A DNA stretch of 64,000 nucleotides from Candidatus Parcubacteria bacterium (GCA_025999335.1 AP024681.1:322565-386564); one strand, 5' to 3'. Shown: positions 36,880-43,120, numbered from the stretch's first letter. Numbers and translations are program-made. Notes: generated by a model not told the origin, from the letters alone.

Positions 36880-36929
36880 GATTAATTTCTTTTTGCTTTT
36901 TTGTTAGGTTCTTTTTGGCTAACTAATTT

Positions 36930-36955
36930 AAATACTTTTTAAAAGTATTTTTTCT
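36930..36955 (+). terminator. candidate terminator hairpin after the giant gene
   Basis: Palindrome AAATACTTTT T AAAAGTATTT (36930-36950) followed by TTTCT. It is all A/T, so stability is modest. Confidence 0.35.
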
Positions 36956-37170
36956 AATTTAAGAATATTTTGACATTTTAGTTGTTTGCGAAGATATTTT
37001 TTCATATTGGAAGAATTTTCTTTGCTGATGGTTTTAGTTCGCTATGACCAACTTCATATTCCTTTTTTTAAAATATTTTCCTTTTTGATTTAAACGAATT
37101 ATTATTTTAGCAAATTTAAGGCGATCTTACATAAAGATTTTTTGATAAAATAATAGTAATTTATTTTTTT

Positions 37171-37244
37171 CGGGACATAGCGCAATTGGTTAGCGCGCCA
37201 GCATGGGGTGCTGGAGGTTGCGGGTTCGAGTCCCGCTGTCCCGA
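37171..37244 (+). tRNA. tRNA-Pro (anticodon GGG)
   Basis: Acceptor CGGGACA/TGTCCCG. Anticodon stem CCAGC/GCTGG with loop ATGGGGT. T-loop GGTTCGAGTCC. Confidence 0.85.
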
Positions 37245-37250
37245 TATTTT

Positions 37251-37973
37251 TTATTTAAAATTACCACAAGCAAAACCTAAAGTGATAAGAGCATCGGTAT
37301 TTTGTAATTTTAGTAATTTTTTGATTTCATCATCATGCAAAGCTCCGGAGATAACACCACCAATATTTTCGTTTGCTAAGCGTAAGCCGAGGCTTTGCGC
37401 ATAAAGTCCGGTTTCAATAAGGATGAATCTACCACCGCGTTCACCGTATTTATTAACAGTTCTTTCAGGAATAGCGACAAAAATAAAAAATACCGCGGGT
37501 TCTCCTTCTAATTCTAAGCCAAAGAATTCTTTAATTTCATTCCATTCAGGGCAATTTGTTACTATTGAGAGAGAATGATTGTCGGCATTATAGTAGACGA
37601 TTTTTTTGTTTAATTTGCTTTTAACATTAAATAAACAAGCAAAAACTTCAATAGGATATTTGCCGCCAGCTGATGGTAATAATCTTTTTGTTGAATTTTG
37701 TTGAGCAAAAGCATAAAACAATGACCCTAATTGTTTTTCTGAGATAGGCACGCTAGAAAATTCTCTAGTACTTTTTCTTTGAGACATTATATAGGCTAGA
37801 CGATCTTTAGGCTTTTTTAAAAATAAATCTTCACTAGGGTAAAAAATTTGGGGTATGGTTTTAAAAGTTCGAGCATCTTCTATGAGATTTTTGATTAATT
37901 TTAAAGATGTTTGCTTGTTTAGTTTAGAATTTTCCCAGAACAACCTAAAAAGATCTGCTTTGTTTTCGTCCAT
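37251..37973 (-). CDS. SagB-type FMN-dependent dehydrogenase (TOMM azoline oxidase, McbC/SagB family)
   Basis: 240 aa with a nitroreductase-fold pattern. Carries RKSTREF, LLPSAGGKYP and NKYGERGGRFILIETG (Lys-Tyr motif). Sits 4 nt downstream of the YcaO gene. Confidence 0.8.
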   Translation of the reverse strand: MDENKADLFRLFWENSKLNKQTSLKLIKNLIEDARTFKTIPQIFYPSEDLFLKKPKDRLAYIMSQRKSTREFSSVPISEKQLGSLFYAFAQQNSTKRLLPSAGGKYPIEVFACLFNVKSKLNKKIVYYNADNHSLSIVTNCPEWNEIKEFFGLELEGEPAVFFIFVAIPERTVNKYGERGGRFILIETGLYAQSLGLRLANENIGGVISGALHDDEIKKLLKLQNTDALITLGFACGNFK

Positions 37974-37977
37974 TGTT

Positions 37978-40308: not shown

Positions 40309-40983
40309 TTAATATTCTGTTTTGCGAGTTTTTAAAATAAGTTTTATTATATAAATAAAACCAGCAATTACTATCCCGCCAGTCGCTATTAACCAGATAA
40401 GTGCATAGTAAAATAAATAATCAAGATATTTATAAACTATCTTCGGAACAACGACAATAGAAGCAAAAAATTCTACAACTACCGAAAGAATTAAAAATAT
40501 TAAACTAAATATTATACGGATAATAAAGGAACGTTTTATTTTTTTTAAAAAATCATATTTTTTATAGAAACCATAAAAGCTTAATTTTATAAATTTTATA
40601 AATATAAATGCAACTCCTATTACTACGATAAATAATATAAAAAATGGGATAGGAAAATAAGAATTAGAATATAATGCTTTCTCGATCATTGCCTGAACCA
40701 TCAATATGACATAAAATATCCCTATAATAAACAGTGATAATATAACTGGCATAAAAAACCCAAATAAATAAGCAGTTCTTGTTTCTTTTGTTTGATTTGA
40801 GGATTCTGTTTCCTCTAATTGCTGTTTTTTAACTAAATTACTTAAATTTCTGCCTGATAAGTGAGAAATAGTTAAAGTAGATATTAAACACGAACAACAA
40901 CAACAGCAACAAGCACCACAAGTCGGCGTTGACGAACTAACTCTTATTTTTTCATTATCAAACTGGGATATGAGTCGGAGCAT
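40309..40983 (-). CDS. 4-TM membrane protein with N-terminal poly-Cys, streptolysin-S-like segment (candidate TOMM substrate 1)
   Basis: 224 aa. The N-terminus MLRLISQFDNEKIRVSSSTPTCGACCCCCCSCLISTLT has 8 Cys at residues 22-32 (nt 40888-40920). Four long hydrophobic helices follow, separated by basic loops. Confidence 0.75.
   Translation of the reverse strand: MLRLISQFDNEKIRVSSSTPTCGACCCCCCSCLISTLTISHLSGRNLSNLVKKQQLEETESSNQTKETRTAYLFGFFMPVILSLFIIGIFYVILMVQAMIEKALYSNSYFPIPFFILFIVVIGVAFIFIKFIKLSFYGFYKKYDFLKKIKRSFIIRIIFSLIFLILSVVVEFFASIVVVPKIVYKYLDYLFYYALIWLIATGGIVIAGFIYIIKLILKTRKTEY
40915..40983 (-). repeat. 69-nt exact direct repeat, copy 1 (5' end of the Cys-rich ORF)
   Basis: Identical base for base to 41679-41747. 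Identity begins at the ATG, and the 5' flanks differ. Confidence 0.9.
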
Positions 40984-41024
40984 ATTTTTATATAATTCTT
41001 TGTTAATAATAATAAAAAACTATT

Positions 41025-41747
41025 TTAATAAATTTTAACTTCATCGTTGCCATTAGATTTAAAATGTCGATTTTTCAAAATAAAGTTTATAGTTATATAA
41101 ATAAATCCAATAATCGCTATACTGATGATTGATATTAAAGATATTATTATGTAACGCTCTAACAAAGTAAGATTAAATAATAATAGTCCAATAAAGAAAC
41201 CGGTAGCAAAAAATTCTATAGTACCAGCAAGAGCTAATAATCCGATATTGTTAATTATGATTTTGATTAAAGTAGAAAGCTTTGTTGTTTTAAAAAAATC
41301 ATATTTTTCGTTGAAACCATGAAGACTTAGTTTTATAAATTTTATAAGCAGCAATAAAACAATTATTGCTGTTGCATATAATGATGTACCATAAAAGATA
41401 TCGGGAGTAAGAAGATATTTTCCATTTTCAATTATTGTTATAATTGCAGATAAAGTTATTATTATTACAGCGCCCGTTGTTACAGCAAGCAATGATACTA
41501 TAAGTAACATAAAAAAGCCGAAAAGATAAGCGCTTTTAGTTTCTTTTACTTCAATTGATGGCGTTGCTTTCTCTAGTTGCTGTTTCTTAACTAAATTACT
41601 TAAATTTCTACCAGTAATATGCAACACAGCTAGAGTAGATATTAAGCACGAACAACAACATGAGCAACAGGCACAAGGACCACAAGTCGGCGTTGACGAA
41701 CTAACTCTTATTTTTTCATTATCAAACTGGGATATGAGTCGGAGCAT
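41025..41747 (-). CDS. 4-TM membrane protein with N-terminal poly-Cys segment (candidate TOMM substrate 2)
   Basis: 240 aa. The N-terminus MLRLISQFDNEKIRVSSSTPTCGPCACCSCCCSCLISTLA has 8 Cys at residues 22-34 (nt 41646-41684). It is a paralog of 40309-40983. Confidence 0.75.
   Translation of the reverse strand: MLRLISQFDNEKIRVSSSTPTCGPCACCSCCCSCLISTLAVLHITGRNLSNLVKKQQLEKATPSIEVKETKSAYLFGFFMLLIVSLLAVTTGAVIIITLSAIITIIENGKYLLTPDIFYGTSLYATAIIVLLLLIKFIKLSLHGFNEKYDFFKTTKLSTLIKIIINNIGLLALAGTIEFFATGFFIGLLLFNLTLLERYIIISLISIISIAIIGFIYITINFILKNRHFKSNGNDEVKIY
41679..41747 (-). repeat. 69-nt exact direct repeat, copy 2
   Basis: Identical to 40915-40983. Confidence 0.9.
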
Positions 41748-41808
41748 TTTTATTATTATAATATAAGTTGTTTATTCAAAGAAAAAAATACTAATAAGAT
41801 TAAAAAAG

Positions 41809-41840
41809 AAGGCGAGCATAATTTTGCTAATGTTCGCCTT
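41809..41840. other. bidirectional terminator-like hairpin in the divergent spacer
   Basis: 11-bp stem AAGGCGAGCAT/ATGTTCGCCTT with one G-U pair and a 10-nt loop. It is flanked by an A-run at 41802-41810 and a T-run at 41839-41844. Confidence 0.5.
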
Positions 41841-41860
41841 TTTTGTTTATAATAAATTTA

Positions 41861-43120
41861 ATGAAAGTTTTCGCTGATTTACATTTACATTCAAAATATT
41901 CAAGGGGTTGTTCTAAGAATTTGAATTTAGAGACTATTAATTATTACGCTTTTTTAAAAGGATTGCAGCTTTTAGCAACAGGAGATTTTTTGCATCCTTT
42001 ATGGTTAAAAGAAATCTATAAAAAATTAATCCCAGTTAACGAAGGTATTTTTCAATTAAAAGACACTCAAAATAGTGCTTATTTTATTTTAGGAGGAGAA
42101 TTAAGTTCAATTTTTTCAAGAAATAATAAGGTTTATCGTATTCATTATTTGATTTTTTTACCTGATTTTAATTTGGTAACCAAGCTATATAAAAAGCTTT
42201 CTTTGTATGCCAATCTTTCTTCTGACGGTAGGCCAATTATTGGTTTAGATGTTATTGAAGTAATGAAAATTGTTTTTGATATTTACGAGAAAACAATTTT
42301 TATTCCTGCTCATATTTGGACTCCATGGTTTTCTTTATACGGTTCAATGTCTGGATTTAATTCTATTTATGACGCTTTTGGAGATTATACAAAATATGTT
42401 ACTGCTGTAGAAACTGGTTTAAGCAGTGATCCAGCAATGAATTGGAGATTGTCTGAGCTTGATCAAATTTCAATTGTTTCTTTTTCTGATGCTCATTCTT
42501 ATTATCCCCATAGATTAGGCAGAGAAGCAACTTTGTTTGAATTAGTAGACTTAAATTACGATAATTTATACAAAGCTTTGAAGTTGCCAACAGTAGATAA
42601 TAAAATTATTATGACCATTGAATTTTTCCCTGAAGAAGGTAAATATCATTACGACGGACACCGTCTTTGCAAAGTTCGTTTCTCGCCTAAAGAGTCAAAG
42701 AAAAATAATTATTTATGCCCTGTTTGTTATAAAAAACTAACTATTGGTGTAATGTCCCGCGTTGAGTCTTTAGCTGATAGACAAGAAAATTTTGTCGCTG
42801 AAGCAAGACCAACATTTAAAAGATTGTCTAACATCGCTGATATTCTAGGACAAATTTTTAAAACTTCGCCAACAAGCAAAAAAGTATTAACTCAATATGA
42901 AGAAATTATTAAAACTTTCGGTAAAGAATTAGACATTTTAATGGGTAATTTTGACAAACATCAAATGTTAAAAACTTACCCCGAACTTGTTAAAGCTTTA
43001 GAAATGATTGACCGTGGTGATATTATTTTAGAAGCTGGTTATGATGGGGAATATGGCAAAGTTTTGTTAGATTTAAACAAGGAAGTAAATTTAAATCAAA
43101 GTTTTAAACAATTATTTTAA
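41861..43120 (+). CDS. PHP-domain protein, endonuclease Q-like
   Basis: About 420 aa. The N-terminus MKVFADLHLHSKYSRG is the PHP His motif, with further His/Asp motifs (PAHIWTPW, SDAHS) and a CPVC zinc-ribbon-like element followed by ..LTIGVMSRV. Start is set to ATG 41861 rather than the TTG at 41843, which lies in the hairpin. Confidence 0.5.
   Translation: MKVFADLHLHSKYSRGCSKNLNLETINYYAFLKGLQLLATGDFLHPLWLKEIYKKLIPVNEGIFQLKDTQNSAYFILGGELSSIFSRNNKVYRIHYLIFLPDFNLVTKLYKKLSLYANLSSDGRPIIGLDVIEVMKIVFDIYEKTIFIPAHIWTPWFSLYGSMSGFNSIYDAFGDYTKYVTAVETGLSSDPAMNWRLSELDQISIVSFSDAHSYYPHRLGREATLFELVDLNYDNLYKALKLPTVDNKIIMTIEFFPEEGKYHYDGHRLCKVRFSPKESKKNNYLCPVCYKKLTIGVMSRVESLADRQENFVAEARPTFKRLSNIADILGQIFKTSPTSKKVLTQYEEIIKTFGKELDILMGNFDKHQMLKTYPELVKALEMIDRGDIILEAGYDGEYGKVLLDLNKEVNLNQSFKQLF

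Follow-up and report, generated by a model that had tools for sequence, protein, structure and literature searches.

A 64,000-nucleotide stretch of the genome of Candidatus Parcubacteria bacterium (GCA_025999335.1 AP024681.1:322565-386564; this whole stretch is hereafter called the window) carries on its minus strand a five-gene cluster (37251-41747) that encodes a putative azole synthetase together with two paralogous substrates, A1 and A2. On balance, we favour the reading that the cluster is a self-contained C-D-B azole synthetase operon, that its substrate is an integral membrane protein and that the product is kept, uncleaved, in the membrane of the producer. At the level of sequence, we establish here which genes and gene families are involved, that the cassette is conserved and how the substrate is built, and by the same comparisons known B-C-D chemistry would act on a polytopic membrane protein, which is a new kind of substrate for it. 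Azole-forming YcaO systems are usually assumed to produce secreted peptide toxins or antibiotics, and genome-mining tools annotate them in this sense.

We found that the three enzymes encoded by the cluster are, judged by their sequences, of azole-forming types. The YcaO cyclodehydratase (D protein, 418 aa; 39234..37978, minus strand) scored 129.6 bits (2.2e-37) against a Pfam YcaO cut-off of 25.7 bits, and a profile of 27 YcaO relatives matched MusD (2e-14), TruD, LynD and McbD in the PDB, and also the thioamide enzyme MJ1094. Residues E72, E75, R76, E181, E184 and R185 and the C-terminal P414-H415-P416 were invariant in the 27 relatives, as were the ExxER and ExxERD motifs and the C-terminal PHPLG; we take the acidic motifs to be ATP/Mg-binding and the Pro-rich C-terminus to be a cyclodehydratase feature. 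The SagB-type, flavin mononucleotide (FMN)-dependent dehydrogenase (B protein, 240 aa; 37973..37251, minus strand) scored 54.5 bits (2.1e-14) against a Pfam Nitroreductase cut-off of 23.5, and its PDB matches were the azoline oxidases BmdC (8e-12) and McbC (1.7e-7). Its translation shows an RxSxR-type motif and a GGKYP (Lys-Tyr) motif, which are presumably marks of SagB-type dehydrogenases. The third protein (275 aa; 40189..39362, minus strand) matched no Pfam family, and neither did A1 or A2. However, a profile of 37 of its relatives matched the E1-like domain of TruD (3.3e-8), followed by LynD, MusD and MccB, and residues C178, C181, C253 and C256, which form two CxxC pairs (a Zn-type motif), were invariant. 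On these two grounds we assigned it as the C protein, the E1-like partner of YcaO. A single-sequence AlphaFold2 (AF2) model of the C protein had a predicted local distance difference test score (pLDDT) of 43, with a moderately confident beta-beta-beta-alpha region at residues 10-50 near the N-terminus. Against NCBIfam, the C protein matched the leader-binding domain TIGR03882 (27.6 against a cut-off of 36.9, E=2.9e-6) and SagC TIGR03603 (20.5 against 187.65, E=3.2e-4), YcaO matched SagD TIGR03604 (183.7 against 219.25), the B protein matched SagB TIGR03605 (66.1 against 78.4), and A2 matched streptolysin S TIGR03602 (17.2 against 35, E=0.0036).

The gene that adjoins the YcaO gene in every related locus encodes a product with an N-terminus like those of A1 and A2. 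A hidden Markov model (HMM) of the first ~55 substrate residues matched 81 of the 89 sequence sources, the other eight being contigs that stop beside the YcaO gene. In the window, A1 (240 aa; 41747..41025, minus strand; substrate HMM 9e-24) consists of a leader, a poly-Cys core, a linker and a membrane domain, and A2 (224 aa; 40983..40309, minus strand) is its paralogue, 51% identical overall. The A1 leader covers residues 1-23 (MLRLISQFDNEKIRVSSSTPTCG; 41679..41747, minus strand) and shows the conserved M1, L4, Q7, F8 and D9, while the core at residues 24-34 (PCACCSCCCSC; 41646..41678, minus strand) aligned with the Cys or Ser/Thr/Cys runs of the relatives. The A2 leader (1-23) and core (24-32, ACCCCCCSC) lie together at 40888..40983 (minus strand), as placed by alignment and by DNA identity to A1. 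We also observed that A1 and A2 share their first 66 coding nucleotides exactly, at 100% identity and with zero synonymous differences (41682-41790 and 40918-41026, minus strand), which points to gene conversion or to a very recent duplication of the 5' end that encodes the leader.

Comparison of 31 substrates from seven phylum-level groups showed that the leader motif MxRLxxQFD begins at residue 1, with M1, L4, Q7, F8 and D9 invariant or nearly so. It is followed by about 10 variable residues closing in TPTCG or AAGGG, by a core of 7-11 contiguous heterocyclisable residues (approximately residues 24-35), and by a hydrophobic stretch of about 14 residues that often closes in a semi-conserved [ST]-A-R, before a polar linker of 20-110 residues leads to the transmembrane (TM) helices. 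The core Cys, P82 and E178 were also (near-)invariant in the alignment. In the candidate phyla radiation (CPR), Firmicutes, Actinomycetota, Dormibacterota and Myxococcota the core holds 8-9 Cys and is all or nearly all Cys, whereas in Beta- and Gammaproteobacteria it is GGGSTSTTCSSC-like, with 2-3 Cys and 9-10 Ser/Thr, indicating that the conserved trait is the ability to form heterocycles and not thiol chemistry. Identity between phyla was 39% over the first 45 residues and 20% over the remainder. The substrates are 122-311 aa long (median 188), which sets them apart from short precursors (<~100 aa) with a C-terminal core.

A HMMER search of 1.84 billion representatives gave 197 substrate clusters at E<=1e-3 and 104 at E<=1e-10, and nearly all of the 150 matches listed among the 197 start at residue 1. 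Every source that names these substrates calls them 'hypothetical protein' (search of a set of 5.8 billion proteins, with matches dominated by Stenotrophomonas), including the one that is 100% identical to A1, from the Candidatus Parcubacteria metagenome-assembled genome (MAG) KatS3mg097, and NCBIfam holds no model for the family. A single-sequence search with A1 returned three proteins, as for an orphan; this status was rejected when relatives were recovered through YcaO neighbourhoods and a six-frame HMM search. In a Bordetella record (L088:9744-9998; L037), the gene caller recognised no more than the C-terminal 84 aa of the substrate, which it listed as a small open reading frame (ORF) of its own, and six-frame analysis gave the full 212-aa substrate, with leader and core upstream in another frame or start context. 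Such miscalls may hide the substrate family from genome-mining tools.

Downstream of the linker, the substrates carry a membrane domain of at least three TM helices with a Pro (GFFxxP) and a buried Glu (E..xW), both near-invariant. Three helices follow the linker in 52 of 75 proteins, and four to five in the window proteins. The A1 domain (about residues 74-222; 41082..41528, minus strand), which has its buried Glu in TIEFFA, was placed by hydropathy-predicted TM segments, and that of A2 (about residues 73-214; 40342..40767, minus strand) by hydropathy, AF2 and charge per loop. The AF2 model of A2 (pLDDT 73.5) showed a disordered leader and five long helices, and the helices at residues 64-105, 112-142, 151-185 and 189-223 agree with an earlier note on this DNA, made from the sequence alone, which had spoken of fused four-helix domains. 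Neither Pfam nor NCBIfam gave a match for the membrane domain, and a Foldseek search of the PDB with the A2 model found no matching fold (best E=2.9). Lys and Arg residues are unevenly spread over the loops: successive loops of A2 hold 2, 1, 8, 2 and 4, by which the linker and the basic loop are predicted to be cytoplasmic, and the linker-side loops of the family average 5.6 against 1.0 in the alternate loops, with 69 of 75 substrates in agreement. By the positive-inside rule, this bias predicts a cytoplasmic linker, a step from charge to topology that is itself inferred; the heterocyclised tract would then be tethered on the side where the ATP-dependent YcaO protein and the FMN-dependent dehydrogenase act.

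We then compared the cassette across genomes. A scan of one genome per species, with up to +/-10 kb around each cassette, gave 79 loci in CPR, Bacilli/Clostridia, Actinomycetota, Dormibacterota, Myxococcota, Betaproteobacteria (Bordetella, Achromobacter, Aromatoleum, Aquabacterium and others) and Gammaproteobacteria (about 15 Stenotrophomonas species and Luteimonas), and the window YcaO had more than 200 relatives at 39-69% identity. The 80 related loci examined, from seven phylum-level groups, carry the same cassette; its genes share a strand in every case, and its median length is 3.6 kb. The gene order was CADB in 55 loci and ADCB in nine (Firmicutes), with the substrate gene directly upstream of the YcaO gene in both arrangements; AACDB occurred only in the window. 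The C protein was present in 84 of the 89 sources. When every ORF of 70 aa or more in 81 loci was entered into an all-against-all clustering, the clusters shared across phyla were YcaO (80 loci), SagB (79), the C protein, the substrate and antisense ORFs over these genes; high-GC loci gave many spurious clusters of the last kind, which were discounted by their position over core genes. Seven called-gene neighbourhoods (two Patescibacteria, one Clostridiales, one Bacilli, one Clostridia, Aromatoleum and Bordetella) likewise showed the same four genes in completely different flanks. Within CPR, Firmicutes, Myxococcota or Actinomycetota, the only non-core genes that recurred in at least three loci were scattered ABC ATPases, paralogues of regulators and ORFs in overlapping frames. 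The genomes of about 15 Stenotrophomonas species have the cassette at one and the same position, with shared flanking genes, and a plasmid search gave no close homologue, the best YcaO proteins being only 28% identical. From these comparisons the cassette looks chromosomal, and in Stenotrophomonas it appears to be vertically inherited at a fixed position.

Some neighbours were considered as further components and rejected: PAP2 genes, which stand beside the cassette in a few Betaproteobacteria only (L087, L088), and DUF2238, which is restricted to a few Firmicutes (L004/L005, L085). In Aromatoleum (L087:7921-8559, minus strand) and Bordetella (L088:7782-8429, minus strand), the PAP2_3 phosphatase gene is found upstream of the cassette, in divergent orientation. 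In addition, a 3-kb contig binned as Methanobacteriaceae (L014, CAZHBQ010000152.1) encodes YcaO and C proteins that are as similar to Bacilli versions as these are to one another, and its YcaO and those of Bacilli are alike 55-57% identical to the window YcaO. This is probably a binning error and not an archaeal occurrence.

The earlier note had held that the flanks of the cluster contain no recognisable leader peptidase, exporter or immunity gene, and our analysis bears this out: none was found within 7 kb of the cluster, and, of the 55 window ORFs with 100 aa or more, 52 were scanned against Pfam and none proved to be an ABC transporter. The proteases that it had named as present in the window and unlinked to the cluster are indeed 7-17 kb away, namely a small SpoIVFB-like Peptidase_M50 (48884-49492, plus strand; 7.1 kb from the cluster), FtsH (49496-51313) and PrsW (19478-20269), all by Pfam. 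It had also set beforehand what would refute it, a protease or transporter consistently co-localised with the cassette in orthologous loci. No protease, transporter or immunity gene was conserved beside the cassette in the 80 loci, and the clustering of neighbours gave no protease cluster. ABC ATPases, grouped by paralogy, occurred in 14 of 81 loci at positions of 0.7-19.8 kb and on both strands. When the 149 proteins encoded up to 6 kb away from 18 low-GC cassettes were scanned against Pfam, 186 families came up, among them ABC_tran three times (two with the ABC-F extension domain) and Peptidase_M50 twice.

Based on these results, we propose that the E1-like C protein would recognise the invariant extreme N-terminus of the substrate, that the YcaO protein would use ATP to cyclodehydrate 7-11 contiguous Cys (Ser/Thr/Cys in Proteobacteria) to azolines, and that the SagB flavoprotein would oxidise these to a contiguous polythiazole or polyoxazole tract. 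The tract would remain covalently joined, through the cytoplasmic linker, to the domain of three or more helices with its conserved Pro and buried Glu, and would lie at or in the cytoplasmic leaflet, where a tethered polyazole might act as a membrane wedge, as a ligand or metal binding site, or as a gate for the helical domain. The cassette probably encodes no leader peptidase, exporter or immunity gene because the product stays in cis. Retention would account for the absent accessory genes, the universal fusion, the conserved residues of the domain, and the fixed position in Stenotrophomonas together with the absence from plasmids. Among the three options that the earlier note had left standing (fused domains that take over export or immunity, a product that is never released, or missing functions encoded elsewhere), the second is the best supported, given the fusion in every visible locus, the self-contained four-gene unit and a predicted topology shared by 69 of 75 substrates.

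Several points weigh against a retained product. The step from homology to heterocyclisation is inferred, the substrate and the three enzymes, like their relatives, all fall below the curated NCBIfam SagBCD and streptolysin S cut-offs, and a leader-binding RRE (winged-helix) fold in the C protein could not be shown from the low-confidence model. The core is preceded by a Gly-rich junction (TPTCG/AAGGG) like those where the leaders of streptolysin S and microcin B17 are cut off, and the hydrophobic stretch that follows the core might cross the membrane on its own, which would put the leader outside. An M50 gene lies within about 7 kb of the cassette in three of 10 CPR loci including the window, and in one it abuts the cassette. 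Housekeeping proteases or transporters acting in trans are possible as well, the loci having been inspected over +/-10 kb.

The main alternative is a secreted or otherwise released azole peptide of the streptolysin S kind. Its leader-core part would be cut from the membrane anchor, for instance by FtsH, signal peptidase or an intramembrane M50/S2P-type protease, and genes at other sites in the genome would supply its export. We consider this rather unlikely, though it is the best placed of the alternatives. SagA has a similar core and Gly-rich junction (the TIGR03602 matches are weak), and the semi-conserved [ST]-A-R motif after the core would also suit release. In a Saccharibacteria MAG, a small SpoIVFB-like M50 gene (L006:7824-8534, plus strand) lies 14 bp upstream of the C gene of the cassette, and its homologue, 45% identical, is the window M50 at 7.1 kb from the cluster; an RseP-type M50 gene (L035:16577-17671, plus strand) lies 4.6 kb from another cassette. 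This pattern is a weak hint of in-trans processing by an intramembrane protease. However, the M50 genes near cassettes differ in subtype, distance and orientation, for which reason we treat them as a lead and not as a component, and none occurs in the 70 non-CPR loci. Release further sits badly with the lack of a conserved protease or exporter at the 80 cassettes of seven phylum-level groups, with a fused domain whose invariant Pro and Glu would be needless in a disposable anchor, with the predicted topology that leaves the tract cytoplasmic, and with a cassette that is apparently vertical and fixed in position in Stenotrophomonas. The third option of the earlier note, that the missing functions are encoded elsewhere, is possible, the loci having been examined over 10 kb on either side, and the M50 genes of the three CPR loci are a hint of it.

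The leader of microcin B17 is removed by the chromosomal TldD/TldE protease, which its cluster does not encode. This example also favours release, and since it shows that such a protease can be chromosomal, the lack of one in a cluster says little by itself; stronger arguments for retention come from how the substrate is built and from its predicted topology. It follows that the premise of the earlier note, by which microcin B17-type loci normally carry a protease or a CAAX-like immunity protein, was too strong as regards the protease, although the absence that it reported holds.

Another explanation, which the earlier note had also raised, is that the fused helical domain is itself an export and/or self-immunity module that would thread or shield the modified N-terminus in place of the ABC exporter and the CAAX-type immunity protein. 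The universal fusion, the conserved buried Glu and Pro and the lack of a separate transporter are what such a module would lead one to expect. We nevertheless regard it as improbable, and the suggestion found no support in the comparisons: the domain resembles no transporter or immunity family of Pfam or NCBIfam and no PDB fold (the best E-value, 2.9, is given above), most of the proteins have only three helices, no energy-coupling (ATPase) partner accompanies them, and the sequence of the domain is poorly conserved, at 20% identity between phyla. Finally, it is very improbable that the Cys run is a metal-binding or S-acylation site, with YcaO and SagB acting on another substrate or by other chemistry such as thioamidation: heterocyclisation is indeed predicted from homology, YcaO also matches MJ1094 and every enzyme is under the cut-offs of the thiazole/oxazole-modified microcin (TOMM) families, but the proteobacterial run is mostly Ser/Thr with 2-3 Cys, no TfuA-like gene was called in the seven called-gene neighbourhoods, the azoline-oxidase-type B and E1-like C proteins are always present, and in most loci the substrate and YcaO genes are direct neighbours.

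Among known systems, the cassette shares with the streptolysin S locus (sagA-I) the discrete C, D and B enzymes and a substrate with an N-terminal leader, a Gly-containing junction and a contiguous Cys run, in line with the weak match to the streptolysin S model. In contrast, the substrates here are 120-310 aa long and continue into a polytopic membrane domain, whereas SagA ends after a core of about 30 aa; neither a SagE-type CAAX protease nor a SagFGHI ABC exporter is conserved in the 80 loci; all components are under the TIGR03602-03605 cut-offs; the leader motif RLxxQFD differs; and the cassette occurs in CPR, Myxococcota, Actinomycetota and Proteobacteria. Microcin B17 (mcbABCDEFG) is likewise made by a B-C-D type azole synthetase, with McbC and McbD as detectable PDB relatives, and its leader protease, too, is outside the cluster. 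Unlike the present cassette, mcb has the McbEFG export and immunity proteins and a soluble 69-aa precursor with a C-terminal core, while here neither was found and the product is apparently tethered. In B-C-D type TOMM clusters at large, a linked leader peptidase, ABC exporter or immunity gene is frequent but not a fixed feature. The YcaO-TfuA thioamidation of McrA provides a parallel of another kind, in that YcaO modifies a functional full-length protein that is never cleaved or exported, and MJ1094 is a detectable relative. However, it yields a thioamide and not an azole, it employs TfuA in place of the E1-like C protein and the SagB dehydrogenase, and McrA is soluble, without a leader or a contiguous core.

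In the literature, Sharrar et al. (2020, mBio, PMC7298704) reported clusters of YcaO and nitroreductase genes in CPR, with 110 in 93 additional genomes of Parcubacteria, Microgenomates and related groups. The passages of that report which deal with these clusters interpret them as secreted antibiotic pathways of the LAP type (linear, azol(in)e-bearing peptides), an interpretation that favours release, and give an example with an 84-aa precursor and a leader peptidase. These CPR 'LAP' clusters very likely include the present cassette family; the same passages do not describe a membrane-fused substrate, the C protein or a distribution outside CPR. The TOMM atlas of Cox et al. (2015, PMC4603692) lists no class of this kind. 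Its 'mobilisin' class consists of B, C and D genes only, without a precursor by short-ORF searches; compared by description only, it differs in having a fused cyclodehydratase and in being restricted to Actinobacteria. Neither Pfam nor NCBIfam nor the full-text literature searched yielded a description of this type of substrate, and an earlier mention elsewhere is possible.

More tentatively than for retention itself, we suggest that these substrates may constitute the first family of integral membrane proteins with a genetically templated polythiazole or polyoxazole tract, which RiPP-type B-C-D machinery would install and which would be kept as a functional element on the cytoplasmic face. 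The family is conserved from 680-kb CPR genomes to Stenotrophomonas and Bordetella and, with similar reserve, could be regarded as a system of protein post-translational modification and not a natural-product pathway. If this is true, azoles join the post-translational modifications known on proteins, many 'LAP' calls without accessory genes and short precursors in CPR and elsewhere are explained, and such clusters should no longer count as antibiotic potential. The cassette is found in at least seven phylum-level groups, minimal-genome organisms included, and its carriers include cultured, genetically tractable species, namely Stenotrophomonas rhizophila, S. maltophilia, Bordetella genomosp. 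4, Achromobacter arsenitoxydans and Aromatoleum tolulyticum, in which the proposal is directly testable.

The boundaries of the cluster in the window are as the earlier note had drawn them, and coordinates and matches agree. Downstream, five nucleotides separate the SagB stop codon from the end of a tRNA-Pro gene (GGG; 37170-37245, plus strand), which is followed by a convergent ORF for a giant surface protein (29647-36879, plus strand; 2410 aa) with four CarboxypepD_reg, one fn3 and two PG_binding_1 domains. Upstream, a hairpin with a T-run (AAGGCGA-16 nt-TCGCCTT, read directly at about 41800-41840) lies between A1 and a divergent EndoQ-like gene (41843-43120, plus strand; match to P. furiosus EndoQ, E=2.9e-54). 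The terminator scan did not return this hairpin, whose 16-nt loop is too long for it. Beyond the EndoQ-like gene are a 112-aa hydrophobic ORF, a gene for an 829-aa ClpB/ClpA-like AAA+ protein (43121-45932, plus strand), an LCP transferase gene and a Mur ligase gene. The start of the AAA+ gene overlaps the end of the hydrophobic ORF, and its product has an N-terminal hydrophobic, transmembrane-looking stretch at about residues 20-65; by this feature, it may be a membrane-anchored Clp-type unfoldase. The gene was not found beside other cassettes.

Elsewhere in the window, dnaA and dnaN (2398-5055, plus strand) place it near the chromosomal replication origin, and a tRNA-Ile gene with the anticodon TAT (20609-20682, plus strand) is unusual among bacteria. 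The window and a Patescibacteria locus (L002:1-7129) have in common gyrA, a small methyltransferase gene, several T4SS_pilin genes and a Band_7 gene (53281-60342 and 24633-25403 in the window), and the different arrangement of this set relative to the cassette points to local rearrangement.

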